Below, piece after piece: positions 1 through 29,233 of a DNA stretch of 64,000 nucleotides. The stretch covers positions 1 to 64,000 of the forward strand of contig CAVRCI010000002.1 of assembly GCA_963719495.1 (NCBI GenBank), written 5' to 3'. Source of the stretch: an uncultured Verrucomicrobiae bacterium. Its GTDB lineage: Bacteria > Verrucomicrobiota > Verrucomicrobiia > Chthoniobacterales > JAATET01. Each line of letters begins with the position of its first letter. Positions within the stretch are counted from its first letter, which is position 1. A program made the translations under genes and the position numbers. Below the pieces are notes generated by a model. The model ran no database searches and had not been told where the DNA came from. It was given only the letters and a program-made list of their open reading frames with translations.

Positions 1-199
1 GGCTCGCGCCGAAGGGAAGCGGGTGGCCGTAGCGGAGCTTGTGTTCGCCGTGGGTGTGGGTGTGGGTGAGGACGGGTCGATGCGGCATGGATGGCGGAGG
101 TTTCCCGAATTTACGTGTCGTGGCGAGCGTTGGTGTTGGGTGGCCGTCTGGTGGCGGGGGAGTCGCTCAGGCTTGCGCGGTGGGGTGGGGTCGGGGCAT

Positions 200-1530
200 A
201 CCGAGCGGCGCGATGGCGGCAACGTGCTTTTTTTGATGGCGGACGAGCTGCGGTTTGATTTGCCGGGGTTCATGGGGAACCCGGTGTCGGACCCCGAATC
301 TCGATGCCCTCGCGGAGGAGGCGGTCATTTTCGACAATGCTTACGCAGCGTCGCCGGTTTGCATCCCCGGGTGGCAGCGTCTGGCGACGGGTAAATATCC
401 GCTGCACATCGGGTGCGAGTATTTTGGCGATGACCTCGAGCCGGGTTCGGATACGTTCGCGCGGCGCTTTTCCGAGGCGGGTTATTACACCGTGGCGTGC
501 GGGAAGCTGCACCACCGGGGGCCGGATCAGATGCAGGGCTGGATGCACCGGATCGGATCGGAGGCGGCGGTGAATTGGCCGGATACCCCACCGAATCGGC
601 GGCGGGCACAGGTCGGTCGGATGAAATGGCGGGGGGGCGGAAGAACTGGCGTTGGCCGGGGTGGGGCGATTCGCCGCTCGAGATTCACGACGAGTACACG
701 GTCGACGGTGCGCTGGATTTCCTGCGGATGCATTTCGGTGGAATGTATCGGCGGGGTGAGACGAATCGCTCCGGTGCTGCTCAAGGTGAGTCTGCAGCAG
801 CCGCATTTCCCGCTGCTGGCGGATCGGGAGACGTTCGATTATTACCGCGAGCGGGTGAGGGCCCGGACGGACGAGGGGGTGCCGGGGTCATCCGGCGCTG
901 GCGATCGGCGCGTTGCCGTGCGGAGACGTCGTGACGGCGGAGCAGGTGCTCGACGCGACGGCGGCCTACTACGCGTTGGTGGAGCGGGTCGACGCGGAGT
1001 TTGGTCGAGTGCTCCAGGGGCTGCGGGACGAGGGGGAGGATCCGGACGAGTGGACCATCGTTTTCACGGCGGACCACGGCGAGATGTTGGGCGAGCATTC
1101 GCTCTGGGAGAAACGGAAATTTTACGAGGGAAGTGTGCGGGTGCCGCTGTTTGTGCGGGACGTCGAGCGGTTTGCGCCGGGACGGCGACGGCAGAACGTG
1201 AACCTCGTGGATGTGTATCCGACGCTGTGTGGGCTGGCCGGGATCGGCGTGCCGGATGATCTCGACGGACGGAGCTTGTTGCCGCTCCTCGAGGGGCGTG
1301 ACGGGCGGTGGGAGAACGAGACGTTTTCGCAATTCGAGGCGGATCATTTCATGATCAAGCGCGGCAATTTGAAATATCTCACCTTCGGGGAATGGGGTCC
1401 CGACGTGCTGTTCGATCTGGCAAGTGACCCGGGCGAATCGGAGAATCGGATCGGCGAGTATGATTACGGCAGCGACGTTGTGGTGATGCGGGAGCGGTTG
1501 CAGGAGTTCATGGCGACGCGAGTGCCGTAG
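200..1530 (+). CDS. Sulfatase (choline-sulfatase-like), frameshifted; start approximate
   Basis: Pieces in ORFs 23..394, 255..1259 and 913..1530 join into NVLFLMADELR..RTPNLDALA..SPVCIPG..GKLH..PHFP..FTADHGEMLGEHSLWEK..YEGSVRVPL, typical sulfatase motifs. Confidence 0.85.
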
Positions 1531-1564
1531 CGGATACGCGGTGGGGATTTGTTGCGACGGACAG

Positions 1565-1596
1565 CCGTTCGTCCGGGGTCTGCCTGCTGTTCGGCA
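1565..1596 (+). promoter_or_regulatory. Putative LytTR box: CCGTTCGTCC-N12-CTGTTCGGCA upstream of precursor 1
   Basis: 10-bp imperfect direct repeat, 22-bp period; same motif precedes the other three precursor units. Confidence 0.55.
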
Positions 1597-1652
1597 CAAA
1601 GGGGTGGTTTGGCTGCGATGGAGGAGGTCCAATCGGCTCGTCGAGAGATCGA

Positions 1653-2030
1653 ATGGACAAAAATCAAATCATGAATCCAAACATTGAAAAATTCAGCGCG
1701 GCGATCGCCAACGATCCCGAGCTCCAGGCGAAAGTTCAGGCAATCCACGCGGACGCGGCGAAGGCGGCGGCTGCAGACTTGGCGGACTTGTCGCGGGAAG
1801 TGGGAACTCCGTTCACCGGAGAAGAATTCCTCGCCAGCGCGGCGGCGACGACGCGGGAGTTGTCGGAAGAAGAGCTGGGAGCCGTCGCGGGTGGCGCGGG
1901 CTGGAAGGCGGACTCGCCGACCAACGTGATGGCGAGCCTTTTCTCTCTGGGGCTGATGTGTGCGATATCCGGGATCCTGACCGCGGCGGCTCCTGAGGTC
2001 ACGAACTGCCAGCCCAAGGACTGGCGTTGA
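1653..2030 (+). CDS. Nif11-like leader RiPP precursor 1 (start may be 1671)
   Basis: IEKF..DPELQAKV..FT.EEF..ELSEEELGAVAGG leader; core AGWKADSPTNVMASLFSLGLMCAISGILTAAAPEVTNCQPKDWR. Confidence 0.9.
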   Translation: MDKNQIMNPNIEKFSAAIANDPELQAKVQAIHADAAKAAAADLADLSREVGTPFTGEEFLASAAATTRELSEEELGAVAGGAGWKADSPTNVMASLFSLGLMCAISGILTAAAPEVTNCQPKDWR

Positions 2031-2042
2031 GATCCGGAGAGG

Positions 2043-5000
2043 TCACCTCGGTTGCAAACTGGCAACCGAGGGGAGGGAGGGATCGAGGAGCCGGAGGAAG
2101 GTGTAGCCAACCCCGGTGGTGCCGTGGGAGAAGGACGGGGCAAAGAGTCGCCCGCGGTCGGCACCCGTGAGCGGGAAATGACCGGCGTCGTTTCGCTGGG
2201 TGAGGATGGGGCGGGCGCGGGCGACCGCCGCTTCTCGCAGGTCGGAGTGCGGCGTGATTTTTGAGGCTTCGAGGAGGAGTTCGATGCGCGCGGATTCGCC
2301 GCAGCAGAGGTGGGTGGGGGTTAGCGCTGGACCGTGACGGGCGTCGGCGATGGCGACGTTGATTTCGGTGCGGGTTTCCGTGTCCGAAAATCCCTGCGCG
2401 ATTCGGGCCAGGCCGACGCCGGGAGCGCCGGAGCACCAACCCCACATGAAGGCGTCGCGATCGGTCGTGCACGCGCCGCGGCGGAAGTCGTGCTAGTTCC
2501 CCGGGTCGGGGCGGAACGTGGAGCGTTCGTAGGCGATGGCTTCGGTGGAGGCTTCGAGGAAGCGTGACTCTCCGGTGGCCTCGCCGAGTCCGGGCCGAGC
2601 GCCCAGGCGAATCCGGCGGCTCCGTGAGCGAGTCCGGTGAGCGGGCGGAGAGCGAACTCCGGCCGCCAGGCGCGGAGGCCGTCGCCGGAGGCGACGCGGC
2701 GGGCGACGAGGGTGTCGCCGAGCCGGATCGCGGACTCGAGGAGCGAGGGATCGCCGGTCTGCGCGTGGAGCTGGACGAGCGCGAGGATGGCCCCGGCCCC
2801 ACCACCGAGGAGGTCGTCGATGTCGCCGGGAGTGTCGGGACGCTCACCGATGAGTTTTGCAAAAAAGGCCGCGTCTTCGAGGTAGTCGTCCTGGCCGGTG
2901 AGATTGGCCAGGAGTTGGGAGCCGTAGAGGAGCGAGCCGAGGCCGGAGCCGACGCCAAGTGGCAGGTGCGTGAGGAAGGGGCGGTTGCGGTCGCGGCGCA
3001 TTTCGTCGAGGCGCGGGCGCGTCGAGTCGAGGGCGAGGTCGAGCCAACGGGATTCGCCGGTCACGCGAGCGAGGGCGGCAAGAAAGACGGCGACTCCCAG
3101 GGAACCGCTGTAGAGATCGAGGCCCATGAGGGAGGCCGTCTGCATCTTGCGCAGCGGATCGAAGCCGAACGAGAGCCACGAGATGCCGCCGTCGCGCAGC
3201 GGGATGGCGCGGGGGCGGCGAGGTCCCCGGCGATGGAGGTCGCGACGCCGAGCCAGTCGTCCGGCGGTGCGGGGTCTGATTTTGAGTAGCGAAGGGTGAG
3301 GCTGGCGCGCACGAGGGCGGCTTGTTCGGCGATGACGCTCGCGTCGAGCTGGCGGAGCTTGTCCTGAGCGTTCTGCCAGCCGGTGCGCCAGAAGTAATCG
3401 CGCACGGCGACGCCGCCGTCCCCGCGGAGGGTCGTCTCGTCGTTGTGCGCGTGGAAGATGGGGATGTCGCCATTCTCGAGGCCGCGACGTTCCGCTTCGT
3501 AGCATTTGAAGACCTCCGGGCAATCGGCGGCGGGGTCGGGTGGGAGAAAGGGCCGGGCCAGTTTCTCGATCTCATCGAGCGATCAATGGCGCTGGCGAGA
3601 AATTCCGGTCGTCCGAGGCGCTGGCGCATGACGCCGTAGATCTGGGTGTTTCGAACGAGGAAGCGAATCTCGGCACCCCGAAACGGCGCGAGCGGGAGGT
3701 CGTAGCGGGCGGCGAGCAGGGTGCGGGCCGCGGCGGTGAAGCCGGTGACGACCTCGTCGGCAAAAGGCGTGGCCGGGATGAGGTGGCCGGCGGCGTCGCG
3801 GGAATGTATTGCCCGGCTGCTGGTCGGGAGCGGGGCGCATTTCCTGGCGCATTCGGTCGGTGCCGAGGTCGAGCCAGGTCGGTTCGTGCCAACCCGCCGA
3901 AGCGCGTTGCGTCCCGCTGAAGCCGCTGAGGTCGCGGGCGTTGCCGCGTTCGTCGATCTGCCAGACGGGGAGCAGGAGGGTGGTGAGAACCCCCGTGTCG
4001 AAGTGGGCGCGTCGCCGGCGGCGGCGAGTTCTGCATCGGTCGCGCCGAACGGCCTCGGGGTGGGCGTGAAGAGGGTTTCCAGATCGATGAGGACGGGGCC
4101 GTTTGCGGTGGCGATGACGTTTTCCTCGTGAAAATCCGAGCCGCCACAGATCCAGGCGAGCGCGAGGAGTTCGCCGGCGCTGTGGTAGTAGGCCGCGGGA
4201 TCGGCGGGGGTGCCGGGGGCGACGAATTCCACCCAGCCGTAGTCGCCGCGGTCGAGCGCGTGAGGCGCGCGGAGTTGGCTGGCCGGATTGCGGATGCGCA
4301 GCCATTCGATGAGGTCGTGCCAGGCAACGTCCATCCGGAGGCCGCGGGGTTTGTAGATCAAGCGACGACCGTCCGCGAAGGTGAGGCCCATGACACGCCG
4401 ACCGCCGCGGTGGGCGTCGCCGAGTTGGCCGTCGATGGCGATGATGTCGCCCTCAGCCCCGGGGAACGTCTCCGCCAGTGCCTCACGATCCCGGGCGAGT
4501 CGGTCGAGAAACTCCGCTCGGTCGCCGGCGCCAGTGCTGCAGGGCGAGTGCGAGTTCGCGCGCGAGGACTGGCCAGCGGTCGAGGCGGGAGCGGAGACCG
4601 CCCGCTCGGAGGTCCACGGCGAGGCGGGCGTAGGGTTCCCGTCGAGGCGGGAGGAGGCCGAGGCTGTCCGCTGCTCAATTCGCTGATGAGCGCCGGGGCG
4701 GCGAGTTCGGCGAGCGTGCGGGTGAGTTCCCGGACGAGACTGAGGGGTAATCCGGCGAGGCCGTCGGCGGTCGCGTGGGCGAGCGGGCTGAGAATTTCGC
4801 CGAAGGGGACTTCGTCGTCGAGCGGCCCGAGCGGGGACGATTCGAGCCGCGCCAGTCCGCGTTGGAGGAGCGAGTGCGCTTTGTCTGGCGGCTGGGTCTC
4901 GAACAAGGCTGCTCCTGCGAGTCGGGTGCGCGCCTCGTCGGTCGACCAGCCCAGGTAGCGCCAACGCTGGGCGAGGCGCGCGGGGTTCGGCGAAGCCGAG

Positions 5001-5091
5001 ATGGCGCTCTCCCACGCTCGGAGGCGGTCGTCGACGAGCTTGGGATCCAGCGCCTTCACCGGACTCAAGGACGGGAGTTCGCTTTGTTCAT
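2043..5091 (-). CDS. lanM: Class II lanthipeptide synthetase LanM, multiple frameshifts
   Basis: Dehydratase motifs GDAHRGG, YKPR, DFHEENVIA, IDLETL, RFLVRNTQIY; cyclase motifs LYSGSLG, DLLGGGAG, GLAHGAAG, WCSGAPG, HLCCG, spread over ORFs 4358..5128, 2844..5015, 2321..3523 and 2043..2447. Confidence 0.9.
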
Positions 5092-5438
5092 GGACGACCG
5101 TCTTTCCGGAGCAGGTCAGCCAACTCACCGCCCTTCTCGGAACCGAACTTGGCGGGAATGCTGCCGCAACCCAGGTGGGTGTTGATGTAGATCGCGCTAT
5201 AGTTTGAGCCTCCGCCGGCGACCGCGCCGAGTTGCTCGTCCGATAGTCCGCGATGGTTGAGGTGGGTGGCTGCGAGGAAGTCGTCGGCGGTGAACGGAGT
5301 GCCGGTCTCGGAGGACAACGCGGCGATCCGGGCGGCGGCTTCGCGGGCGGCGGCGGCGTGGATGGATTGGACTTTCGCTTGAAGCTCGGGGCTGGCGGCG
5401 ACGGCTTCGGTGAACTTCGTGACGTTTTCGGTGCTCAT
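5088..5438 (-). CDS. Nif11-like leader RiPP precursor 2
   Basis: Leader ends LSDEQLGAVAGG; core GSNYSAIYINTHLGCGSIPAKFGSEKGGELADLLRKDGRP; stop overlaps an ATG at 5091. Confidence 0.88.
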   Translation of the reverse strand: MSTENVTKFTEAVAASPELQAKVQSIHAAAAREAAARIAALSSETGTPFTADDFLAATHLNHRGLSDEQLGAVAGGGSNYSAIYINTHLGCGSIPAKFGSEKGGELADLLRKDGRP

Positions 5439-5478
5439 GGTGTTTGGTTTGCTGGGTGGGGTGATGGGTCTCGGCGGA

Positions 5479-5845
5479 CTATTTCCCCCACTGCGAGGGT
5501 TGGCATTTGTCGGCTTCGTTGCCTTTGATCAAGGCGGAGGCCGAAGCGATGAAGGCGCAGCCGATGCCGAGGGTAATGATGCTGGCCATGACGTTGGCCT
5601 CCCCGGAGTTCCACCAGCCGCCGGAGACGGATTCGAGTTGTTCGTCGGAGAGTTCGCCTTGAGCGGATTGGGCGGAGGCGAGGAACTCGTCGGCGGTGAA
5701 CGGCGCGTCCGTCTCGGCGGAGAGGGCAGCGATTCGCACGGCGGTCTCTGCGGCGGCGGCGGCTTGGATGGCTGTGGATTTTGGCTTGGAGGTCGGGGCT
5801 GGCGGCGACGACTTCGGTGAATTTGGTGATGTTTTCGATGCTCAT
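5479..5845 (-). CDS. Nif11-like leader RiPP precursor 3 (frameshifted in leader)
   Basis: MSIENITKFTEVVAASPDLQAK in one frame, ELSDEQLESVSGG/WWNSGEANVMASIITLGIGCAFIASASALIKGNEADKCQPSQWGK in another. Confidence 0.85.
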
Positions 5846-5932
5846 GATTATGACTGATTGAGTGGGAATCGTGGTGGGCGTTCCCGATGGAGGGGAAATT
5901 TTCATCGGCGCGGGTTTTCGTCCAAGCGATTG

Positions 5933-5964
5933 GGATGAACGGCGGATGGGGGCTGGATGAGTGG
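5933..5964 (-). promoter_or_regulatory. Putative LytTR box: CCACTCATCC-N12-CCGTTCATCC upstream of precursor 3/2/lanM unit
   Basis: 10-bp direct repeat, 22-bp period. Confidence 0.65.
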
Positions 5965-6107
5965 TGGCGAGAAGCTTGGAAATTCTTTGTCGAGCCAGTT
6001 GGGTCGTCTGACGGCGAGGCGATCGTAGCGCAAGGTATCCTTTTCGAATGAGACCAGGATGAATAGCTTGGCGAGCCGTTCCAACCCGACCAACCTACCG
6101 AAAAAGC

Positions 6108-6945
6108 ATGACACCATTCACCCCCTACACCTTCGGCAGCATGTCGTTGGGGAGGAATCCCGCCGACATCAAAGACGACCTGGCCGTGGCCCGGCGGGCG
6201 ATGGAGGCGGGCGTCTGGTTTCACTCCAGCCCGACTTACAATAGTGGCTTCACCTACATGGTTTTGCGGACGGCATTTGATGAAGATCGAAGTGCAGTTC
6301 CGCCGATGATTCTGAAAGTGCGCGATGCGTCGGTGTCATTAATGCGGTTTGAAGTGGAGGACAGCTGCCGCCGTCTCGGACTGGAATCAATTGACGTGGC
6401 GCAGCTCGTTTCTGATGGATGCCAATCCGGGCAATCTGGTGGATCAACTGTGCGCCGGTGATGGCCCACTTGTTGAAGAACTCGATTCTCTTCGCTCACG
6501 GGGACTCATCCGACAGGCGGTGATCTTTTTGACTCCACAAAATTCCGATGCCGCCGTGCGGGCCGCCCGCAGCGAGCTGATCGACGGCGTCACCTTGTAT
6601 TGGAATGCCTGTCAGCGCGATTGCAGCGCCACGGCCTGGGCGACGATTCGTGAGAATCGGATCCCGACATTGGCCTTGCGCACTCTGGGTGGAGGGCCCG
6701 GTGACAAATCCAGCGCCGCCAAGGCGGACCTTCTCGATCAGCTCGTCGAATCGGTTGGTTGTCGCAATTTAACCGCGTTCAACCTCCGGTTGGCCGCCAG
6801 CGAGTCCGTCATCCAGACGACGATCGGCGGCACAGCCTCACTGGCCGGACCCTGCACTTCCGTGGCAGCCCGGGAAGCGCATCCGCTGCCGGACCAAGTC
6901 CTTCGCAGCGTCGAGCAACTGCAAACTGCTGCGACGGCGGAGTAA
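6108..6945 (+). CDS. Aldo/keto reductase family protein (one frameshift near 6410)
   Basis: FGSMSLG..ARRAMEAGVWFHSSPTYN..EDSCRRLGLESIDVAQL..LDSLRSRGLIR. Confidence 0.7.
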
Positions 6946-6992
6946 TTTCCGCCGACGCTCCTGCGGACTGGGCGCGGGAATGTTCGCGGGGA

Positions 6993-7332
6993 CTACATGC
7001 AATTCTGGGGGCGGTCACCGTTCTGCGAATTCTGATACATGATCAGGCAGGCCAGACCGGCGGTGAAGATGCTGGCGGCGACTCGGCCGAGAACCTCCCG
7101 GTTGCCACCGGCGACCGCTTCGAGTTGCTCGTCGGTGAGTTCGGCCTGGGCGGAGTTCGCGGAGGCGAGGAATTCTTCGACGGTGAAGGGTGCGTCGGTT
7201 TCGGCTCTACAACGCGGCGATCCGGGCGGCGGCATCGCGGGCGGTGGAGGCGTGGATGAACTGGACTTTTGCCTGCAGGTCGGGGCTGGCGGCAACGGCT
7301 TCGGAGAATTTGGTGATGTTTTCGGTGCTCAT
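6993..7332 (-). CDS. Nif11-like leader RiPP precursor 4 (frameshifted in leader)
   Basis: MSTENITKFSEAVAASPDLQAKV..ELTDEQLEAVAGG; core NREVLGRVAASIFTAGLACLIMYQNSQNGDRPQNCM. Confidence 0.85.
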
Positions 7333-7427
7333 GGTTGTGGTTGCGTTGGGTCGTTTGAACTCAGTGGTGGCTCGCGTTTCGATGGATGGAACGGTTTCAG
7401 CGGTTGGGAATTTCGTCCAAGTGTTTG

Positions 7428-7459
7428 GGACGAGTGGCGCCCGAGGGCCGGATGAATGG
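7428..7459 (-). promoter_or_regulatory. Putative LytTR box: CCATTCATCC-N12-CCACTCGTCC upstream of precursor 4
   Basis: 10-bp direct repeat, 22-bp period; flanks also resemble 5900-5965. Confidence 0.65.
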
Positions 7460-7592
7460 TCGCAGCAGGGAGATGGGCCGCATCGCCGGGCGGTTGTCTT
7501 CCCTTGGGAGGTATTTTTCTGAACGAAGGGTGTCAGAAGCGGTTGCTTCTTGACCTGGCAGGCAGCTTTCGCATGGATTTCGCAACGACCTA

Positions 7593-8413
7593 CATGCCAA
7601 GCGTGTCCGATCTTCGCCGCCGTCCGGGCGGAGTGCGCAGCTCCCGCTGGTGGCGGAGATTTTTTCGGCGGACCGGACGTTTCGGATCATTTGCAGCGGC
7701 TTTTGCTCCGGCGTCCGGCGATCTCGGTGACGCGGACGCCGGAGTCGCTGGGCGAGGTGTCGTGGTCGGGGCCCGGCTGTTGTTTTGTGATTCGGACGGG
7801 GAAAGTGAGCGCGTGCTTCGGATGCTGGGGGAGCGGCCTTCGTCGTTCGACGTGATCCTGCTGGCGGGTGAGGAGCGGTGCGGCGGCGGCGGCGTTTGAG
7901 GTGGACGCGTTGGATTTCCTGGTGAAGCCGGTGGAGAGCGATCGGGTCGGGCGGACGGTGCGGCGGTTGCTGCCGCTGGACTTCGGCGGCGGGGAGTGCG
8001 GAGGTGGCGGAGACCGTGCAGCGGTATCTTCGGTGCCGTTCGAGCGGGGCGGCGCTTGATCGCGATCGACGACATTTGCGCGATCCACGCCATTGGAAAT
8101 TACACGCAGGTGTTGCTGGCGGGCGGGGCGACGGAGGTGGTGATGCGGTCGCTGGTGCGGTGGGAGGCGACACTGGGCGGCGGGCGGTTTATTCGGGTTC
8201 GTCGGTCGAACGATCGCGGACGTGGCGCGGATCCGGCGGCTGGAGGTGTCGGCGAGCGGGGAGGGGGACTCGCGGAGATGGAGGGGTCTGAGCGAGGAGC
8301 AGGCCGTGAGTCGGCGCTGTCTGGCAGCGCTGCGGGCGGCGCTGGCAACCGCTCGTCAGCCGGGGACGACTCGTTCGTCCAAAACTCGTGGCACGGAGAG
8401 CGGTCCGACGTAA
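7593..8413 (+). CDS. LytR/AlgR (LytTR) family response regulator, frameshifted; start approximate
   Basis: AFEVDALDFLVKPV (receiver end), IDDICAIHAIGNYTQV..RSLVRWEATL..FIRVRRS, VSRR (LytTR domain). Confidence 0.8.
8349..8380 (+). promoter_or_regulatory. Putative LytTR box: CCGCTCGTCA-N12-TCGTTCGTCC upstream of NHLP precursor/export operon
   Basis: 10-bp imperfect direct repeat, 22-bp period. Confidence 0.55.
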
Positions 8414-8433
8414 GGTCGTGTGGAATTGCACCC

Positions 8434-8738
8434 ATGGACGGTCCGGATTTTCAGAACATGACCCGGCGCGAGATCGAGGATTACCTGATCGAGCGGAGTT
8501 TGGTGGACGCGTCGTTTCGCGACGGTTGATCCGGGAGCCGCGCGCGGCGTTGACCGAGTTCGGGCTGCCGCTGGGCGAGGATGTCGTGGTGAACGTGCAC
8601 GTCGAGGAGCCGGGGAGTTTCTCCATCGTGCTGCCGCGGGTGCTGTGGAAGGGCGGCGAGCTGAGTCCCGAGGAATCGAGTGGGGTGGCCGGCGGAGTGA
8701 CGGCTCCGGTGGAGCAGTTTTTTCGCGGCTACGTGTGA
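8434..8738 (+). CDS. NHLP (nitrile-hydratase-like leader) RiPP precursor, one frameshift near 8520
   Basis: TRREIEDYLIERSLVDASFR/RLIREPRAAL..VNVHVEEPGSFSIVLP..ELSPEESSGVAGG; core VTAPVEQFFRGYV. Confidence 0.8.
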
Positions 8739-10330
8739 GTGGGGCTGGGCGGGTCGCCTGGGTTCGCTGCCTCCTGATGCTGGCTGCGGGTCGGTGTCGG
8801 GTGCGGCGGCGAGTGGGGAGTTCACCCGGTCGGAATCTCGGATTCGACCTGCCACGGATCGATCCGACGGCGGCGGTCTTTGCCACGCTCGAAGACAGTC
8901 CGCAGATCGCGCTGCAGGAGGAACAGGTCGGACCTCGGATCGGTGGCGTCGTGATCGGCGGGGCCATTTGACACGACGGTGGTCGGGCGCGGGAGGATCC
9001 GCGGAGCGCGGAGGATCGCTCGGTGACGCCGCGGGAGGGGGCGTGCCGCGCGGGGCAGGCGGCGGGAGCGGATTTGCAGTTCGTTTGTGCGGCGGGATTC
9101 GCTGTATGATTACGAGGTGCGGATTGCGGAAGAAATTCCGCAACGGCGTGGTCGTCGAGCCGACGACGATTATCGCTTCGCGGGTGGGAGTGATTCCGGG
9201 AGAGTTGAATAATCGGAGCGAGTTTCGGTTTAATTTCGGCGTGACGATTCCGGCTGGTCGAGGGCTGGGGACGACGGTGAACGAGGCACCGGAGATGGGC
9301 GCAGGTCGATTGGCGGGCGAGTTGGTTTTCGTTGCGGAACGTGACGTCGCAGGCTGGTGACGACGGTCTCGACGTATTGGAGCTGCCGGGCAGCGGAGCG
9401 GCGGTATGAGCTGCTGGTCGAGAACGAGGAAATTTCCGCCGGGCTGGTCGGGACCGTGAGGCGATGGTCGAGGCGCAGGAGTTGGCGAGTTCGCCAGTTG
9501 TCGCAGTTCCGGGCGGATCAGCAGAGCACGGCGGCGCAGCGGATTCGGAACGGAACAGGTGTCCGTTCAGGCGAGGCAGCGGCTCGCGCTGGCGATCGGA
9601 TACGGTGCCGACCGGGTGGCGCTGGCTCGCTGACTTCGGCGGAGCTGCCGGTGCGGCCAAGCGATCCCGATTACCCGGAGCTGATCGACCTGACGACGGC
9701 GGCGCTGGCGTTGCGCGACGATTTGCACGCGGCGCGGTCGCTGGAGATTTCGCGGAAGGTGCTGGTGACGGCGTCGTTTCTGAATTTGCGCCCGATCATC
9801 GATCTGCGGCTGGACGCGGGATACGTGCCGTTCGACACGCGGTCGTCGGCGTCGACGGATCGCGGGGGGCAGTTCACCGGGGAGCGTCGGGCTGAACCTC
9901 GAGTGGCCCATCGAGAACAGTTTCCAGCGCGGAGGGTTGATCCAGGATCTGGCGACGTACGCGGACAGTCAGATTCGGGTGGAGGATCTGGAGCGCAACA
10001 TCGTGTCGTCGGTGATCTCGGACTTTGCGGAATTGCGGAGCGCGGCGGCGCAGGTGCTGCGGTTGCGGGAGGCGGCGCGGTTCAATCGTGAGGCGTTGTC
10101 GGCGCAGCAGGAACTCCTCTCCCTCGGGCAGGCTCCGATCACCGACGTCATCACCGCGCGGCAGCGATTGATCTCGGCCGAGCTTTCGTTCGTTGACGTG
10201 AGCAAGCGTTACGCGATCGGGATCGCGCAGTTGCGGTACAGACACGGGAACCCTCCTGCCGTGGGACGAGTCCGGGAGCTGGATCACGCCGTTGCTCTGG
10301 ACCACCATTCCGTTCGCGGCTCACACCCAA
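8735..10330 (+). CDS. TolC-family outer membrane efflux protein, heavily frameshifted
   Basis: Helical fragments (ALSAQQELLSLGQAPITDVITARQRLISAELS) and position directly before HlyD. Confidence 0.6.
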
Positions 10331-10336
10331 TAACCG

Positions 10337-11590
10337 ATGCAATCGAACCTTTTTCGCCAGAAGGCGCTGGACAAACTTTCGTCACCCGAGCGGCTTGATC
10401 AGTTGCTGGCGGTGACTCCGCGGCGGGCCTGGTTGGCGTTGGCCGCCATCGTTGGAATCCTCGTTGCGGCGCTGGCGTGGAGTCTGCTGGGATCGCTGCC
10501 GACGCGGGTGGCGGGGCCAGGGGTTTTTGTGCGGATGGGTGGGGCGTTTCAGATTGTTTCGCGCGGGGATGGCTCGGTGATCGACCTGACGGTGGGCGTC
10601 GGAGACATCGTGAGCAAGGGGGAGGTGATCGGGCACCTGGAGCTGCCCGAGCTGGAGGTGCGGGTGGAGAACGCGGCGGCGCGGCTGAAGGAATTGGAGA
10701 AGGCCGACGGGATCTCCGACGAGGCCGACGCGACGAATCTGCGTTTGACGGTCGCGGCGCTCGACGAGCGGAAGGAAACGTTGGAGCAATCGGCGGCCGA
10801 TTTCGACGAGCAGACGAAGGCGCTTTCCGAGCAGGTGGAGATCCAGCGGGATTTGCAAAAGCGGGGCCTGATTCCGCGGTCGACTTTGCTGGCGAACCAG
10901 ACGGCGCTGGCTTCCAGTCAGCAGAGCGCGTCGAACGCACGGGTGGAACTCGCGAACACGGAGACCAGCCGATCCGAGATGATGAATACGCTGCGCGAAA
11001 AGGACGAGGCGCGTCGGCTGGGCATCGCGGACGCGGAGCGCGAACTTCGCACGCTGCAGAAGCAATACGACGAGGCGATCAACATCCGGAGTCCGTTCGA
11101 CGGGCGGATCATTGAGATTCAGACGGACATTGGCGACGTGGTGCGGCGGGGCGAAAGCGTGCTGGCGCTCGAGAATACGCACGAGGCGCTGCAGTGCCTG
11201 TTGTTCATCCCGGCGGGCGAGGGTAAGAAGGTGAAGCCGGGTATGGCGGCGCAATTGGCACCTTCAGTGGCGAAGCGGGAGGAATACGGGTTTCTGAAGG
11301 GGACGGTGGTGAGCGTGAGCGGACTGCCAGCGACGGACGCGGCGGCGGAATCCATCCTCCACAATTCGCGGCTGGTCGAGCAGCTCTTTGCTCGCGGCAA
11401 TCCGATCATCGCGACTGTCGAATTGATTCCCGATGAAACGACGACGAGTGGGTTTGCGTGGTCGACCTCGCAGGGGCCGCCGACGGACATCACGTCGGGC
11501 ACGCTCGCCGAGGGTCAGATCGTCGTGCTACGGCAGCGGCCGATCACGCTCGTGCTGCCATTTTTGCGTCAGCTCTTCGGGGTTCACTAA
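10337..11590 (+). CDS. NHLP bacteriocin system secretion protein (HlyD family)
   Basis: LFRQKALDKLSSPERLDQL, IRSPFDGRI, FAWSTSQGPP, RPITLVLP; intact 417 aa. Confidence 0.93.
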   Translation: MQSNLFRQKALDKLSSPERLDQLLAVTPRRAWLALAAIVGILVAALAWSLLGSLPTRVAGPGVFVRMGGAFQIVSRGDGSVIDLTVGVGDIVSKGEVIGHLELPELEVRVENAAARLKELEKADGISDEADATNLRLTVAALDERKETLEQSAADFDEQTKALSEQVEIQRDLQKRGLIPRSTLLANQTALASSQQSASNARVELANTETSRSEMMNTLREKDEARRLGIADAERELRTLQKQYDEAINIRSPFDGRIIEIQTDIGDVVRRGESVLALENTHEALQCLLFIPAGEGKKVKPGMAAQLAPSVAKREEYGFLKGTVVSVSGLPATDAAAESILHNSRLVEQLFARGNPIIATVELIPDETTTSGFAWSTSQGPPTDITSGTLAEGQIVVLRQRPITLVLPFLRQLFGVH

Positions 11591-11602
11591 ACGAACGGTC
11601 TC

Positions 11603-13738
11603 GTGATTCGCACACCCACCGTCATCCAGATGGAAGCCGTCGAGTGCGGCGCGGCAGCGTTGGCCATTATCCTGGCGTATCACGGTCGGATCGTGCCGCT
11701 GGAGGAGTTGCGCATCGCGTGCGGGGTGTCGCGGGACGGGAGCAAGGCGAGCAATATCGTGAAGGCGGCACGGACCTACGGCCTCGCCCCGCGGGCGTTC
11801 CGGAAGGAGCCGGCGGAATTGCGGACCCTGCCGCTGCCGGCGATCATCTTCTGGGAGTTCAATCACTTCGTGGTGCTGGAGGGATTCCGGCGGGGGAAGG
11901 TCCACCTCAACGATCCGGCGATGGGGCCGCGGAAGGTGACGGACGAGGATTTCGACACGTCGTTCACGGGCGTGGTGATCACGTTCGAGAAAACGGCGGA
12001 CTTCCAGCGCGGCGGCGAGCGACCGAGTTTACTTCGGGCGCTCGGTGAGCGGTTGCACGGGTCGCGGCGGGATTTGCTCTACGTCGTCTGCGTGGGGCTG
12101 GCGCTGGTGGTGCCGGGGATGGTGTTGCCGGCGTTCATGCGGATCTTTCTCGATCAGATTTTGGTGCAGGGCGAACACTCTTGGCTGCGACCGATGCTGC
12201 TGGCGATGGGTGGCGTGATCCTCGTGCAGGCGGCGTTGACGTGGCTGCAGTCGAACTACCTGATGCGGCTGGAGACGAAGTTGGCGCTGCGGGCGTCGAG
12301 CCGTTTTTTCTGGCACGTTCTGTCGCTGCCGATCGAGTTCTTTGCCCAGCGTCACGGCGGAGAAATCGCGACGCGGGTCGCGATCAACGACCGGGTCGCA
12401 TCGCTGCTCTCCGGCCAGCTCGCGGCGGCGATGCTGGGGTGTTTCACGGCGGTCTTTTACCTCATTCTGCTGCTCCAGTACGACTGGGTGCTCACGGTCG
12501 TCGGCGTCACGGTGGCTGCGGCCAATGCCGGGCTGCTGGTGGCGGTGTCACGGGCTCGGAAGGACGGGAACCTGCGGGTGCTGCAGGAGAGCGGAAAGCT
12601 GTCGGGCGTGACGATCGGCGGGTTGCGCGGGATCGAGACGCTCAAGGCCTCGGGGGCGGAGGATTCGTTCTTCACGCGGTGGGCGGGTCACCACGCGAAG
12701 GCGCTCGTGGTGAAGCAGGAGTTGGCGACGTTTGACCAGATCCTGTTGAGCGTGCCGGCGTTGCTGCTGGCGTTGAATACGACGGCAATCCTCGTGATCG
12801 GCGGGCTGCGGGTGATGGATGGTCATCTGACGATTGGCACGCTGGTGGCGTTTCAGACGCTGATGGGGAGCTTCCTTGCGCCGGTCGCGACGCTGGTGAG
12901 TCTGGGCGGGGCGCTGCAGCAGACGGAGGGCGACGTGGGACGACTCGACGACGTGTTGCGGACCGGGAGCGCGCCGCATCTCACGGACGAGAACGCGGAC
13001 CCGGCGCTGGTGGAGAGGCCGCGGCTGTCGGGGCGGATTGAGTTTCGTAACGTCACGTTCGGCTACAGTCGACTGGAGCCGCCGCTGATCGAAAATTTCA
13101 ACCTGACGATCGGCGCGGGCGAACGCGTCGCGCTGATCGGGAGATCGGGGAGCGGGAAATCGACGTTGTCGAAGCTGGCGTCGGGACTTTACGAGCCGTG
13201 GTCCGGGGAGGTGTTGTTCGACGGGGTGCCGCGGCCGCGCGTGCCGCGGGATTTGCTCGTGGTGAGCGTCGGCGTGGTGGATCAGGACATCTTTCTCTTC
13301 GGTGGGACGATCCGGGAGAATCTCACGATGTGGGACGCGGGCATCCCGACGCAGCGAATGATCAAGGCCGCGTGGGACGCCGAGATTCATGATCTGATCA
13401 GTTCGCGGCCGGGAGGTTACGAGGCCGAGTTGACGGAGGGCGGGAGCAATCTGAGTGGCGGGCAGCGTCAACGTCTCGAGATCGCGCGAGCTCTCGTCGA
13501 GGATCCGAGCATTCTCATTCTCGACGAGGCGACGAGCGCACTCGATCCGTCGACGGAGGAAGCCATCACCGGAAATCTGCGGGCGCGGGGTTGCACGTGT
13601 CTGATCGTGGCGCACCGGCTGAGCACGATCCGGGACGCCGATCAGATCGTCGTTTTGGACAATGGCCGGATCGTGGAAAGCGGTCGGCACCGGGAGCTGA
13701 TCGAGGTCGGTGGAGCCTACGCGAGGTTAATGGAATGA
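11603..13738 (+). CDS. NHLP bacteriocin ABC transporter, C39 peptidase/permease/ATPase
   Basis: QMEAVECGAA (C39), HFVV, GRSGSGKST, LSGGQRQR, ILDEATSALD. Confidence 0.95.
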   Translation: MIRTPTVIQMEAVECGAAALAIILAYHGRIVPLEELRIACGVSRDGSKASNIVKAARTYGLAPRAFRKEPAELRTLPLPAIIFWEFNHFVVLEGFRRGKVHLNDPAMGPRKVTDEDFDTSFTGVVITFEKTADFQRGGERPSLLRALGERLHGSRRDLLYVVCVGLALVVPGMVLPAFMRIFLDQILVQGEHSWLRPMLLAMGGVILVQAALTWLQSNYLMRLETKLALRASSRFFWHVLSLPIEFFAQRHGGEIATRVAINDRVASLLSGQLAAAMLGCFTAVFYLILLLQYDWVLTVVGVTVAAANAGLLVAVSRARKDGNLRVLQESGKLSGVTIGGLRGIETLKASGAEDSFFTRWAGHHAKALVVKQELATFDQILLSVPALLLALNTTAILVIGGLRVMDGHLTIGTLVAFQTLMGSFLAPVATLVSLGGALQQTEGDVGRLDDVLRTGSAPHLTDENADPALVERPRLSGRIEFRNVTFGYSRLEPPLIENFNLTIGAGERVALIGRSGSGKSTLSKLASGLYEPWSGEVLFDGVPRPRVPRDLLVVSVGVVDQDIFLFGGTIRENLTMWDAGIPTQRMIKAAWDAEIHDLISSRPGGYEAELTEGGSNLSGGQRQRLEIARALVEDPSILILDEATSALDPSTEEAITGNLRARGCTCLIVAHRLSTIRDADQIVVLDNGRIVESGRHRELIEVGGAYARLME

Positions 13739-16290
13739 AGACGCTGGGGCTGCGGGATCACGTTTGGACGCTGGAGGCGGGGAGCGCGGAGCTTTTCCTG
13801 CTGCGCGGAGAATCGCAGCGTCCTCTCGGGTTGGTGGATGCGCCGGGCTGTCTGCCGGGGACGGGGACGGATGATCTCAAAATTGTGGCGAAATTCTCCG
13901 ACGACGCCGTGGTCGAGGCGGTTTCCTTCGAGGCGTTGGCGGCTGACCAGGCCACCCTGTCGGTTTACCGGATGGACACTCAGGTGCTCGCGGGGATGTT
14001 TTCGCGTCGGGCGCTTGAGTTGCCGCAGGTTGATTCCGTGGAATCGCTGCGTGAGCATCAGCGGGAATTCACCCGCGCGCTGTCCGAGGCCTTTGACGAG
14101 CTGGATCGCGGGGAGGTCGCGCGTCAGCAGACTCGCACGACCGATACCCAGGTGGCTCGACAGCGGGCCGCCGACGAATTGGCCGGCGTGTTGATGGGCC
14201 GGGCCGCGGACGGAGCGACGAATACGGGCGATCCGCTGATGGTCGCGATGAGCGCGGTGGGACGGGCGGTGGGCATCGAGATCGAGGCGCACCCGCTGGT
14301 GAATTCGTTCCCGTCCCTGCCGCTGCGCGTGCAGGCGATCGCGCGGGCGTCGCGGTGCCGGGCGCGGGTCGTGACCCTGGCGGGCGAGTGGTGGCGGGCG
14401 GAGAACGGACCGCTGCTGGCTTTCGCCGAAGACGGTCGACCGGTGGCGTTGATTGGGACGGTAGGCGGCTATCGTGTCGAGGATCCCAGCGGCGAGCTGT
14501 CGGGCCGGGTGACGAGGGAAGTCGCGGGGAAACTGGCACCGAGGGCGTTTGCGCTGTATCGACCCTTCCCGGACGAGGTGATCACGTGGAAGCGGATCGC
14601 GGCATTTGCGCTTCGCGACAACGTGCCGGATATCGGGCTGATTCTTTGTCTCGGGGCATTGGTGGGATTGCTGAGTCTGGTGACGCCGTTCGTGACTCAG
14701 TTGATCTTCGACTACGCGATTCCGGGCGGTCTGGACGAGCAGATGTGGGCGCTGGGGGCGGCGATGCTCGTTGCGGCGCTGGGGACGGCGTCGTTCAGTC
14801 TGGCGCAAGGGTTTTTAACCCTGAGGATCGAGACGAAGGCGGATCGCGACGTGCAGTCGGCGGTGATCGACCGGATTCTCCGGCTGCCCGCGCCATTTTT
14901 CCGACTCTACAGCGTGGGCGATCTGGCGAGCCGGACGATGAGCGTGGACGCGATCCGGCAGATTATTTCCGGCATCGGAATCACGACGTTGCTGGGAGCG
15001 ATCTCGTCGCTGTTCAATTTCTTCATCCTCTTCCGCTACGGGTGGCAGCTCGGCGCGCTGGCGATCGGGCTGGGGGTGACGGCGTTGGTCGTGACGGTCT
15101 CGGTGAATCTTTACGCGCTGCGGTACGCGCGGCAGACCGAGGACCTGGAGGGTGCGATCAATGGATTGGTCAATCAGCTGATCGCGGGAATGGCGAAGCT
15201 GCGGGTGACCGGGGCGTCGGCGCAGGCGTTCGCCGTGTGGGCGGGGAAGTTCGCGGAAAAGACGCGGCTGCGACTGCGGATGCGCAGGATTCAGAATCTG
15301 CTCGCGGTGTTCAACGGCGCTTTCCCGGCGGTGTCGACGCTGCTGATTTTCTGGTTCGCGTTTCAGCGAATCACGACGGGGGAGGGGGGATTTTCGACCG
15401 GGGATTTTCTCGCCTACAACGCGGCGTTTGGCGCTTTCCTGGGAGCGGCGCTGGCGTTCTCGGGCGCGACGATTCAGGCGATCATGGTGATCCCGCTTTA
15501 CGAGCGGGCGCGCCCGATCCTGCACGAGCTGCCGGAGTCCAGCGCGGCGCAGGCGTGGCCGGGGGAGCTGACCGGCGACATCGATCTGCGGCACGTGAGT
15601 TTCCGCTACAACGAAGACGGACCCTTGGTGCTCGACGACTTGAATCTGACGATCCGACCGGGGGAATTCGTGGCGGTCGTCGGGCCGTCGGGCAGCGGGA
15701 AGTCGACTCTGCTCCGGCTGTTGCTGGGGTTTGAGCAACCGGCGGCGGGTTCGATTTTTTTCAATGGTCAAGCGCTCGACACGCTCGATCGAACGGAGGT
15801 GCGGCGGCAGATCGGCGTGGTGCTGCAGACGAGTCAGCCGATTTCCGGCGACATCTACAGCAACATTGCAGCGACTTCGGGCGCGTCGATGGAGCAGGCC
15901 TGGGCGGCGGTGGAATTGGCCGGTCTCACGGCGGACATCCGCGCGCTGCCGATGGGGATGCACACGGTCGTCAGCGAGGAGGGCGGCGGGCTATCGGGCG
16001 GGCAGCGTCAGCGATTGATGATCGCGCGGGCGGTGGTGGGCGATCCGCGGATTCTGTTTTTCGACGAGGCGACGAGCGCGCTGGATAACGAGACGCAGGC
16101 GCACGTGGCGGCCGGCTTGGAAAACCTCAAGGCAACGCGACTCGTGATCGCGCATCGGCTGAGCACGGTCGAGCAGGCGGACCGGATCATCGTCCTGCGC
16201 GGGGGCCGAATCGAAGAGCAGGGGACGCACGCGCAGCTTATCGAGCGGCGTGGGCTGTATCACGCGATGGCGAGTCGCCAGGAAGCGTGA
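13735..16290 (+). CDS. NHLP bacteriocin ABC transporter, permease/ATPase
   Basis: ATG overlaps upstream stop; WW..NGPLLAF, GPSGSGKST, LSGGQRQR, FDEATSALD. Confidence 0.93.
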   Translation: MKTLGLRDHVWTLEAGSAELFLLRGESQRPLGLVDAPGCLPGTGTDDLKIVAKFSDDAVVEAVSFEALAADQATLSVYRMDTQVLAGMFSRRALELPQVDSVESLREHQREFTRALSEAFDELDRGEVARQQTRTTDTQVARQRAADELAGVLMGRAADGATNTGDPLMVAMSAVGRAVGIEIEAHPLVNSFPSLPLRVQAIARASRCRARVVTLAGEWWRAENGPLLAFAEDGRPVALIGTVGGYRVEDPSGELSGRVTREVAGKLAPRAFALYRPFPDEVITWKRIAAFALRDNVPDIGLILCLGALVGLLSLVTPFVTQLIFDYAIPGGLDEQMWALGAAMLVAALGTASFSLAQGFLTLRIETKADRDVQSAVIDRILRLPAPFFRLYSVGDLASRTMSVDAIRQIISGIGITTLLGAISSLFNFFILFRYGWQLGALAIGLGVTALVVTVSVNLYALRYARQTEDLEGAINGLVNQLIAGMAKLRVTGASAQAFAVWAGKFAEKTRLRLRMRRIQNLLAVFNGAFPAVSTLLIFWFAFQRITTGEGGFSTGDFLAYNAAFGAFLGAALAFSGATIQAIMVIPLYERARPILHELPESSAAQAWPGELTGDIDLRHVSFRYNEDGPLVLDDLNLTIRPGEFVAVVGPSGSGKSTLLRLLLGFEQPAAGSIFFNGQALDTLDRTEVRRQIGVVLQTSQPISGDIYSNIAATSGASMEQAWAAVELAGLTADIRALPMGMHTVVSEEGGGLSGGQRQRLMIARAVVGDPRILFFDEATSALDNETQAHVAAGLENLKATRLVIAHRLSTVEQADRIIVLRGGRIEEQGTHAQLIERRGLYHAMASRQEA

Positions 16291-25600: not shown

Positions 25601-26924
25601 CAGGGCCGCCGCATCAAAAAAGATCGCGATAGAAGAAGTTTGGTCTGGTACGATATTTTAATCTGCCTAGATGGAGTGTATGCCCGAAACGCATCCCATC
25701 CAAAAAAGCCTGATCGAAGAGTTCAAAACCATCGAAGACCCGCGAATTTCGCGCACTCGCTATCATGAGTTGAGCGACATTCTGGTGATTGCGATCTCGA
25801 CACTTTTGTGCGCAGGCACGTCTTTCTACGACATGGGAGAGTTCGGTCGGGCCAAGGGAAAATGGTTCCGAACGTTTCTGAAGTTACCCAACGGCATCCT
25901 CAGCCACGACACTTTCAATCGCGTGTTTTCGTTGATCGATCCAGCGAGTTTCCACGAGTGTTTCATGAGGTGGACGCAGACCGTGCGCGAACACATCGAC
26001 CGGGAAATCATCGCCGTTGACGGCAAAGCCCTCCGCGCAGCCTGCCAGGACGGAGGGAACGTGCGCTCCATCGTCAATGCTTAGGCCAGCAGCAATCGAC
26101 GCGTCCCGAGTCAGCTCGAAGTGCCCGACAAAACCAACGAACCGACCAAAGGGAGATGGCCTGCGGCAGGCAGCCCGCAGGGCGGAGCGAAGCGACGGCA
26201 AATCACGGCGGTTCCCACGCTACTGCAAGCGTTGGAACTCGGTGGCTGCATCGTGAGCACCGATTAGGGTGGGGTGCCAGAAAGAGATCGCCCGAGAATT
26301 CATCGAGGCCGACGCCGACTACGTTCTCGCTCTCAAAAGCAATCGTCAGACCATCCACGCGGAGGTCAAAAGCTTCCTCGATGCCGAATTCGACCGTGAG
26401 CTCCAGAGCCTTGCGGCACCCAAACCATCCACGAAGAAGCTGCAAACCGCCCCCAATTTTCCATTTTGGAAACCGCCGACAAAGGCCACGGGCGATTGGA
26501 AATCCGACGCTATTTCCAAAGCGTCGCCATCGACTGGTTCGAAGACGTCAGCCAATGGGAAGGTCTGCAAAGCGTCGGAATGGTCGAATCCAGCCGCGAA
26601 ATCAAAGGTCAAATCAGCATCGAAAGACGCTACTTCCTGAGCAGCCTGCCCCTCGACGTCGAACTCTTCGCTCAAGCCGTCCGCGGACATTGGGGCGTGG
26701 AAAACTTCTGCCACTGGGTGTGGGACGTCATCCTGCGCGAAGATGGTTCCCGCGCTTCGAACCGCTCATGCCGCCGAAAATCTCGCCACCCTGCGCCGCC
26801 TAGCTTTGAATCTGCTCTCTCGCGAAAAGTCCAAAAAACGTAGCATCAAGACCAAGCAACTCGTCGCCGCCTGGGATCACGACTTCCTCCTGCACCTTCT
26901 CAATTTTTAGATGCGTCGGCCCAT
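25601..26924 (+). mobile_element. ISAs1-family IS, decayed (transposase pseudogene ~25680-26910)
   Basis: IR CAGGGCCGCCGCATCAAAAA / TTTTTAGATGCGTCGGCCC; DPR, SHDTFNRVF, AVDGK, HGRLEIR, RGHWGVEN; internal stops and frameshifts. Confidence 0.88.
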
Positions 26925-27542: not shown

Positions 27543-27598
27543 TCCGCCCGTCCGTGGTCCCGTCAGATCTGCTATCTACAGCCTTGCTGATTGTCTAG
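27543..27598 (-). repeat. Gene-less cassette family B, truncated by IS1182
   Basis: Near-identical to 59601-59656 up to CTAG. Confidence 0.8.
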
Positions 27599-29199: not shown

Positions 29200-29233
29200 C
29201 TAGGGGTTGGCTGCAGCGCCTTGTTCGGTCGTA

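Follow-up and report, generated by a model that had tools for sequence, protein, structure and literature searches.

A class II lanthipeptide locus of an uncultured Verrucomicrobiae bacterium: Nif11 precursors sharing a Ser/Cys register and an NHLP-leader gene with a predicted link to a LytTR regulator

The first 64,000 nucleotides of contig CAVRCI010000002.1 (GenBank assembly GCA_963719495.1, forward strand) of an uncultured Verrucomicrobiae bacterium, in the following called the window, carry between positions 1,653 and 16,290 a lanthipeptide gene cluster. The locus comprises a class II lanthipeptide synthetase (LanM), four precursor genes with Nif11-type leaders (P1 to P4), a LytTR regulator, a gene with a nitrile-hydratase-like leader (NHLP), an aldo/keto-reductase-like gene and an export operon (Table 1). 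An earlier note, made from the letters of this DNA, had read these genes as a prochlorosin-like combinatorial system in which one promiscuous LanM serves two types of leader, and had proposed profile searches and a LanM phylogeny as checks. All genes that it named were recovered in place.

Table 1. Genes and predicted LytTR-type direct repeats of the locus. Positions are those of the window; L001 is the second copy of the locus on contig C3; G numbers denote other genomes.
Feature	Position	Strand	Remarks
Direct repeat before P1 (10 bp, 12-bp spacer, 10 bp)	1564..1595	+	C3 copy 22.6 bits, the top score genome-wide; in the window copy the second half-site differs by one base
P1, Nif11-leader precursor	1671..2030	+	44-aa core, 2 Cys, Ser at Cys1-8, Thr at Cys1+7; TIGR03798 32.1 bits, PF07862 above cut-off
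LanM, class II lanthipeptide synthetase, CCG zinc site	2043..5128	-	frameshifted in window; intact at L001:8615-11695
P2, Nif11-leader precursor	5088..5438	-	40-aa polar core, one Cys, off-scaffold; TIGR03798 37.5-41.4 bits
P3, Nif11-leader precursor	5479..5845	-	45-aa core, two-Cys scaffold; frameshifted in window, intact at L001:7899-8264
Direct repeat before P3-P2-lanM unit	5934..5965	-	20.3 bits; both contig copies and G004
Degenerate aldo/keto-reductase-like gene	6108..6945	+	PF00248 16.3 bits (cut-off 24)
P4, Nif11-leader precursor	6993..7332	-	36-aa core, two-Cys scaffold; frameshifted in window, intact at L001:6411-6749; orthologue in G013
Direct repeat before P4	7429..7460	-	18.0 bits; both copies and G004
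Receiver-LytTR regulator, atypical receiver	7573..8413 (ends approximate)	+	frameshifted in window; G004 orthologue PF04397 49 bits
Direct repeat inside 3' end of LytTR gene, before NHLP-exporter operon	8348..8379	+	17.8 bits in window, 27.1 in G004, 23.7 in G013; same position in G148, G114, G240
NHLP-leader protein	8434..8738	+	13-aa Cys-free tail ending F-F-R-G-Y-V; frameshifted in window and in second copy
TolC-family outer membrane channel	8739..10333 (ends approximate)	+	heavily frameshifted; TIGR01844 and PF02321 on fragment
NHLM-type HlyD adaptor	10337..11590	+	TIGR03794 335.9 bits (cut-off 156.2)
C39 peptidase ABC transporter	11603..13738	+	TIGR03796 1069 bits (cut-off 853); PF03412; Cys and His motifs in translation
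Peptidase-less second ABC subunit	13735..16290	+	TIGR03797 864 bits (cut-off 709)

Within the source genome (G000, 4.5 Mb) the window forms the start of contig C2. Its positions 1-13779 are duplicated in reverse orientation at C3:1-13737 with 97.4% identity and 162 gap openings. C2 and C3 are contiguous through this unmerged contig-end overlap and the assembly counts the cluster twice; a second lanthipeptide locus on C3 was therefore ruled out. In the second copy (L001), LanM is a single open reading frame (ORF) of 1,026 amino acids, and P3 and P4 are in frame. A genome of the same genus (G004) has LanM, the four precursors and the LytTR, NHLP and reductase-like genes all in frame, and its contig stops inside the TolC gene. 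Because the breaks differ between both copies and the genes are in frame in G004, the frameshifts of the window were attributed to read errors, and a pseudogene reading was ruled out on the same evidence. Low-depth contigs of sequencing run X1 likewise disagree with three indels of the window, which lends weak support to read errors; this run, possibly the source sample, contains 0.18 of the words, and 13 of 30 bins are covered. An ATG at 1653 is missing from the second copy, so that the most probable start of P1 is 1671, and LanM possibly starts 23 codons further downstream than annotated. A search of genome contigs with LanM gave one match, 95% identical. A LanM with 50% identity to the locus enzyme is labelled Chthoniobacterales and one member of the NHLP family Terrimicrobiaceae; these labels bear out the Verrucomicrobiota host assumed earlier, and its order is most likely Chthoniobacterales.

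LanM enzymes phosphorylate Ser and Thr, eliminate the phosphate and add Cys, and thioether rings result. The intact LanM scored 635 bits with TIGR03897 (cut-off 304), as the proposed profile check had anticipated, and contains the domains PF13575 and PF05147, i.e. a dehydratase and a LanC-like cyclase; in the window it is split by frameshifts into six profile pieces. The catalytic residues of both domains align with those of LicM2 and CylM. The cyclase motifs WCSGAPG and HLCCG reported before are both present, and a single full LanM was found in the whole genome. All four aligned LanM orthologues possess the CCG three-Cys zinc site. The proposed phylogeny was calculated with FastTree from 70 sequences (a subset of 120 listed homologues, LanMs of the order and four plasmid references), including four CHG outgroup sequences and leaving out ProcM and SyncM; its deep branches are long. 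LanM fell within a CCG group containing NpuM (support 0.97), where it belongs to its own subclade (support 1.0). The two enzymes share 29% identity, and NpuM is described as a ProcM-clade enzyme (PMC13060382; the accession matches locus L146). The placement in the CCG clade was thus confirmed. The second half of the original claim, that the CCG site marks substrate-tolerant enzymes, goes too far: 112 of the 120 closest LanM homologues have this site, and because it is so common the motif alone is no predictor of promiscuity.

LanM was detected above cut-off in 30 of 401 genomes of the order. The complete set of LanM, Nif11 array, NHLP, LytTR and TolC/HlyD/ABC/ABC is found in G000, G013, G072 and G089, which represent three families; it is truncated in G004 and present in part on two metagenome contigs. 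In the viral contigs searched no LanM relative was found. The source genome additionally contains a stand-alone LanC-like gene (C13:280429-281574) with neither dehydratase nor obvious precursor, and further CCG LanM clades occur in Chthoniobacterales (L116-L131), several of them near ordinary NHLP genes.

The four Nif11 leaders all terminate in GG, and Ser/Thr and Cys are present in every core. As described before, the precursors lie on both strands, one on the plus and three on the minus strand. The TIGR03798 check gave a divided outcome, with scores between 27.8 and 41.4 bits: P2 exceeded the cut-off of 32.3, and the other three stayed below it (32.1, 30.3 and 27.8 bits). All four precursors are located within 6 kb, and a genome-wide search gave no Nif11 match outside the locus and its duplicate copy. 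The P2 core is identical in G004 (40/40 residues).

For a comparison of the cores, 47 were extracted from seven related loci, one leader fragment without GG being excluded. Two Cys residues are found in 38 of the 47 and none in three. A common register, S-x7-C-x6-[S/T]-x8-10-C, is shared by 29 cores, including three of the four at the locus (P1, P3 and P4). Ser thus occupies the position eight residues before the first Cys in 29/47 cores, compared to a mean of 2.7 and a maximum of 10 in 2,000 shuffles. Within these 29 cores the residue at Cys1+7 is Ser in 27 cases and Thr in two, the second Cys follows at +16 to +18 throughout, Gly is found at -3 in 28 and Thr or Ser at -5 in 24. P1, P3 and P4 reach a best 19-residue hydropathy of 1.9-2.0. 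The precursor profile matched eight of the 401 genomes of the order, and among the best 150 of 4,342 profile matches there are Ser-x7-Cys cores with different second halves. In the comparison of genera, P3 shows higher conservation in its core than in its leader (38/45 residues, 84%, versus 51/76, 67%, in the G013 orthologue), and the core has a non-synonymous divergence (dN) of 0.11 and a synonymous divergence (dS) of 0.61; for P4, core and leader are about equally conserved (54% and 58%). The cores therefore do not look like the prochlorosin-like library assumed earlier, since most of them keep one Ser/Cys register and the P3 core outlasts its leader between genera. Judged from these alignments, they are likely to be variations on a fixed Ser/Cys scaffold and not a free library. 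A fold prediction for P3 was confident in the leader; in the core the pLDDT remained below 50, uninformative on ring pairing.

Up to 19 Nif11 precursors per LanM are found in the G089 region. This array (L056, G089:C5:578000-597999) has a separate direct repeat for most of its precursors and NHLP gene fragments in its spacers. At or near lanM, each locus contains a single polar precursor that does not follow the scaffold and in many cases has the motif x-G-C (window 5088-5438; L056:15678, L068:9571, L059:8084-8455); it could be a second component. In G013 (L023:9633-12129) and G072 (L059:1278-3738) an extra repeat-led unit by lanM encodes a Nif11 peptide devoid of Cys, together with a monofunctional transglycosylase and an S9-type hydrolase.

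Downstream of the NHLP gene, the genes matching TIGR03794, TIGR03796 and TIGR03797 are adjacent and all above cut-off, as expected of an NHLM export cassette. C39 domains cleave after GG, and the cassette exports via TolC. The TolC gene, frameshifted as it is, remains recognisable (over 180 aa it shares 54% identity with the intact TolC of G013), so that the full export operon described beside LanM holds. The same is not true of the aldo/keto reductase. Besides its PF00248 score below cut-off, the gene gave a weak match in the PDB (E 0.014). Aldo/keto reductases possess the tetrad Asp-Tyr-Lys-His, and in that weak alignment the Asp and His columns are replaced. The regions of G072, G089, L067 and L068 gave no match to this gene, and it is absent among the ORFs listed for G013. 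A role as a conserved tailoring enzyme, for example a dehydroalanine reductase, was rejected as unsupported, the gene being degenerate and not conserved in the system.

Taken together, LanM, precursors and exporter very probably constitute a real class II lanthipeptide system, in which ring formation is predicted. It resembles the ProcM-clade multi-precursor systems but departs from the prochlorosin type in two of its defining features. The CCG-clade LanM would dehydrate and cyclise all four Nif11-leader precursors, and the register shared by P1, P3 and P4 would give two thioether rings. The simplest pairing would connect Ser(-8) with Cys1 and Ser/Thr(+7) with Cys2, giving consecutive rings. 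The reverse pairing, Cys1 to +7 and Cys2 to -8, also fits the spacing, and NpuM cyclises in both directions (PMC13060382). The C39-ABC/ABC/HlyD/TolC cassette would then cleave the leaders at GG and export the products. Because the cores are hydrophobic and nearly uncharged, these products may act on membranes.

The LytTR regulator named before is recognisable in the window despite its frameshifts. Its orthologues form a distinct group (E ≤ 1e-95, versus ≥ 1e-53 for other LytTRs), which was detected in seven of 305 other genomes. Direct repeats of the LytTR type are located upstream of each of the four transcription units (P1; P3-P2-lanM; P4; NHLP-tolC-hlyD-abc-abc). Their half-site matches the AlgR core CCGTTCGTC (PMC4064291), and the 12-bp spacing agrees with LytTR boxes found upstream of bacteriocin genes (PMC6193735). 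After training on 24 repeat pairs from other genomes, mostly G089-type copies, a matrix gave 16 matches of at least 15 bits in the genome; the eight with a period of 22 correspond to six distinct sites, four of them at the locus. A strict repeat pattern found two distinct sites, both at the locus, and zero at six other spacer lengths. The repeat directly precedes the NHLP gene in G000, G004, G013, G148, G114 and G240, and also stands before large unrelated ORFs (~1,000 aa) in G148 and G240. Since an AlgR-like direct repeat is found before all four units, control of the cluster by LytTR through these repeats is predicted with good confidence.

Two further observations concern the surroundings of this regulator. 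In genomes without this LanM, a protein of ~1,000 aa with no clear Pfam family is encoded beside the LytTR orthologue (L110:6634-9861, L114:6013-8988, L156:1399-2373). In the G072 cluster a GNAT acetyltransferase lies beside LytTR (L059:10359-11372), reminiscent of the lipidating NpuN.

The NHLP-type leader was confirmed on the intact G004 orthologue, which scored 56.8 bits with TIGR03793 (cut-off 50.9), so that the one NHLP-leader peptide of the earlier note passed its profile check. A profile search yielded 91 proteins, of which 83 were full-length and kept; eight were dropped (fragments, two broken own copies and distant matches). The C-terminal motif F-x-G-Y-x is present in 82 of the 83, and in 80 a GG is located 8-16 residues from the end. 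Only three of these 80 tails contain Cys, always as one of the final two residues. Strong matches (E ≤ 1e-28), one per genome, were obtained in ten of the 401 genomes of the order, and 20 weaker ones are ordinary NHLPs; no match at 1e-15 was found in 400 other genomes from the phylum. The gene adjoins the LytTR orthologue in seven of the ten genomes and lies 23 kb from it in G089 and 19 kb in G394. Conversely, six of the seven other genomes with a LytTR orthologue carry NHLP. Among the five NHLP carriers outside the full system, a LanM match is absent in four, and the LanM of the fifth, G114, belongs to a distant clade. The near-complete genomes G148 (98%) and G394 (96%) contain NHLP without LanM, but a TIGR03796 exporter above cut-off. 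Because the gene adjoins LytTR in most carriers and occurs without LanM in near-complete genomes, NHLP follows the regulator and not the synthetase. It does not show the traits typical of NHLP precursors, namely a hypervariable Cys/Ser/Thr-rich core, paralogous expansion and a nearby modifying enzyme. A fold is predicted for its body (pLDDT 85-96 over residues 11-60), and the ESM Atlas returned generic NHLP or Nif11 clusters only, at 0.87-0.90. Fragments of the NHLP tail were seen in promoters of the G089 array and not in those of the window, G004 or G013.

As the tail has no Cys, NHLP was rejected as a LanM substrate; on this evidence it is very unlikely to be one, and the earlier idea that two kinds of LanM substrate are mixed at the locus is not supported, the more so as the gene travels with LytTR and not with LanM. 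A regulatory role of NHLP appears fairly probable from its distribution, and within that role an exported signal is somewhat favoured over an intracellular partner. No NHLP with a regulatory role was found in the literature searched, which was mostly open-access text without supplements.

We consider it reasonably probable, as a whole, that the locus makes fixed-scaffold lanthipeptides, that LytTR switches its four units and that the NHLP peptide is the signal of this switch. In such a circuit LytTR would bind the repeats and activate all four transcription units. The NHLP tail (8-16 aa, with an invariant aromatic end) would be released by cleavage at GG, leave the cell through the same cassette and feed back on LytTR in the manner of an autoinducer. 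The signal role is favoured because GG is kept in nearly all homologues, the tail combines a variable start with an invariant aromatic end, and the gene stands under a repeat. A wider proposition can be put forward only tentatively and may well be wrong: that a nitrile-hydratase-like leader was co-opted for a short unmodified autoinducer (…F-F-x-G-Y-x) controlling a kinase-less LytTR, which would give the Gram-negative Chthoniobacterales a peptide switch of the quorum-sensing type, transferable between fixed-scaffold lanthipeptides and unrelated secreted proteins.

A number of observations run counter to the reading of a fixed scaffold under a peptide-controlled LytTR. On the side of the cores, the P1 pair between genera is less conserved in the core (36%) than in the leader (53%), and the paralogous cores of P3 and P4 are only 28% identical, with a dN of 1.01 versus a dS of 0.76; judging from these values, diversification between the fixed positions is real to some extent. 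Moreover, 18 of the 47 cores are off-scaffold, P2 included, and the 47 are not independent (G000 and G004 are near-identical; G089, L067 and L068 are close kin). On the side of the regulator, comparison with canonical receiver features showed SA, SS, DA or DS in place of the acidic pair in four of six LytTR orthologues and Glu at the phospho-site in the other two. A sensor kinase was not found in the locus, and the sole LytS-type kinase of the genome adjoins a different LytTR. Ten other repeat matches of at least 15 bits lie elsewhere in the genome, eight of them with a period of 21, and the seed consensus was picked by eye with the locus's own sites in view, which makes the genome scan partly circular. 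No repeat directly precedes NHLP in G394, G009, G072 and G089. GG is lost and the tail kept in three of the 83 NHLP homologues. Finally, G009 (fragmented, 81% complete) has NHLP with no LytTR orthologue seen, and G147 has a LytTR orthologue without an NHLP match, the gene ending 120 bases from the contig end.

The same lanthipeptide system could operate with NHLP as a direct intracellular partner of the atypical LytTR, an inhibitor or co-activator, whose export could report a completed export machine. The receiver looks non-phosphorylatable in all six orthologues and the locus offers no kinase that was found; the NHLP body is predicted to be folded and is as conserved as LanM (47-64% for both), the GG is missing from three homologues, and G240 has the LytTR-NHLP pair with no exporter gene seen in the 20 kb read. 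Two-gene systems of a LytTR and an inhibitor with such repeats are known (PMC6193735). Their inhibitors are, however, membrane proteins, and a repeat between LytTR and NHLP would drive NHLP and not LytTR, unlike in those operons; the cleavage site and the leader helix are also kept in 80/83 homologues. We therefore regard an intracellular partner as unlikely, though worth keeping in mind. More improbable still, NHLP might be an accessory of the NHLM exporter, a trans-acting LanM leader or an unmodified exported tail product, its linkage to LytTR being mere operon history. NHLP does open the exporter operon in G000, G004 and G013 and adjoins lanM in G089, L067 and L068, and NHLP leaders are known to track this exporter (PMC2887384). 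Yet in G072, G114 and G240 the gene is away from exporter genes and beside LytTR, and near-complete genomes without LanM retain it; this explanation is very improbable.

The combinatorial system originally envisaged, in which a promiscuous LanM would produce many ring topologies from unrelated precursors of the Nif11 and NHLP kinds, draws on the CCG site and clade of LanM, the large precursor number in G089, the off-scaffold cores and the strong divergence of paralogous cores. It has to be set against the fixed register in 29 cores, the purifying selection on the P3 core and the NHLP tail devoid of Cys. Furthermore, all precursors found in this genome are confined to 6 kb of the locus, in contrast to the scattered prochlorosin genes with their non-conserved cores (PMC10783134, PMC10027976). 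We consider this reading improbable, and the fixed-scaffold lanthipeptides with a LytTR switch remain preferred.

Among characterised systems, the npu (nostolysamide) cluster of Nostoc punctiforme PCC 73102 (L146) shares with the locus a ProcM-clade LanM, a Nif11 precursor with GG, a TIGR03794/03796/03797 exporter and an adjacent response regulator; its product, nostolysamide, was characterised as membrane-active (PMC13060382). It differs in its distant LanM, in a single annotated precursor with four Cys, in a GNAT acyltransferase and in its cyanobacterial host, and an NHLP gene is not annotated within the 17 kb of the npu locus examined. Prochlorosin and synechococsin systems (ProcM, SyncM; PMC10783134, PMC10027976) likewise have a CCG LanM that acts on several Nif11 precursors, whose leaders are conserved. 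With their non-conserved cores and scattered genes they differ from the precursors studied here, which are clustered, mostly follow one register and have a LytTR-type repeat per unit. In another described cluster with NHLP and N11P leaders together, a CHG and a CCG LanM are present, one per leader type; the locus has one LanM and a Cys-free NHLP.

On the side of regulation, the LytTR Regulatory Systems (PMC6193735) resemble the locus in having a LytTR, repeats with a 12-bp spacer before bacteriocin genes and a small partner gene under the same repeat. There the inhibitor is a membrane protein and repeats precede the LytTR operon, whereas at the locus the partner is a soluble NHLP protein and the repeat follows the LytTR coding start. 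The locus further differs from these systems, and from ComCDE/Blp, in its atypical receiver and Gram-negative host. The pheromone circuits ComCDE and BlpCHR are LytTR-controlled bacteriocin systems that need a sensor kinase and have short GG leaders. With them the locus shares, as predicted from its sequence, a LytTR regulator and direct repeats before target and signal genes; it differs in having no cognate sensor kinase and a non-canonical receiver phosphorylation site.

Victivallis vadensis is placed in the Verrucomicrobiota by GTDB. It is among the organisms listed by Haft et al. 2010, who state that the genes of NHLP and N11P precursors lie close to one another, to LanM and to the NHLM export cassette (PMC2887384). 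The architecture has thus been described, LanM occurs in 30 genomes of the order, and the rarity claimed for the locus was overstated. Haft et al. treat NHLP cores as hypervariable, Cys/Ser/Thr-rich substrates in paralogous families, in contrast to the single-copy, regulator-tied NHLP with a Cys-free tail found here. The statement that no characterised example is known from the lineage still holds: in the literature searched no characterised Verrucomicrobiota lanthipeptide turned up. The main text of PMC7268733 does not mention Verrucomicrobia, PMC4289311 lists no cluster for ribosomally synthesised and post-translationally modified peptides in its two genomes, and PMC12537861 likewise lists none. 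The chassis of the locus appears to be that of an ordinary class II system, with a conserved core register, and its novel part would be the regulator-linked NHLP peptide with its predicted role.

With this locus, a lanthipeptide family that can be tested becomes accessible from a lineage that is abundant and barely cultured. With ~30 natural variants on one Ser/Cys register, one can ask whether promiscuity is inherent to CCG-clade LanMs or arises only where cores diversify. The locus also advises caution, as an NHLP gene beside a LanM is not necessarily its substrate. If NHLP is indeed a signal or a partner of the regulator, its leader family would gain a role outside biosynthesis, and a way would be indicated to activate such clusters, which is the usual obstacle to isolating their products.

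Elsewhere, contig C2 contains 161 matches to a 127-bp attC-like repeat between 27 and 174 kb, 28 of them in the window (27011-64000), where seven are inverted at 49.7-55.3 kb. Together with an integron-type integrase at C2:177194 these repeats make up a large chromosomal integron. Two multi-copy insertion-sequence-like elements (25601-26922 and 27595-29204) are located at the edge of a low-GC region.

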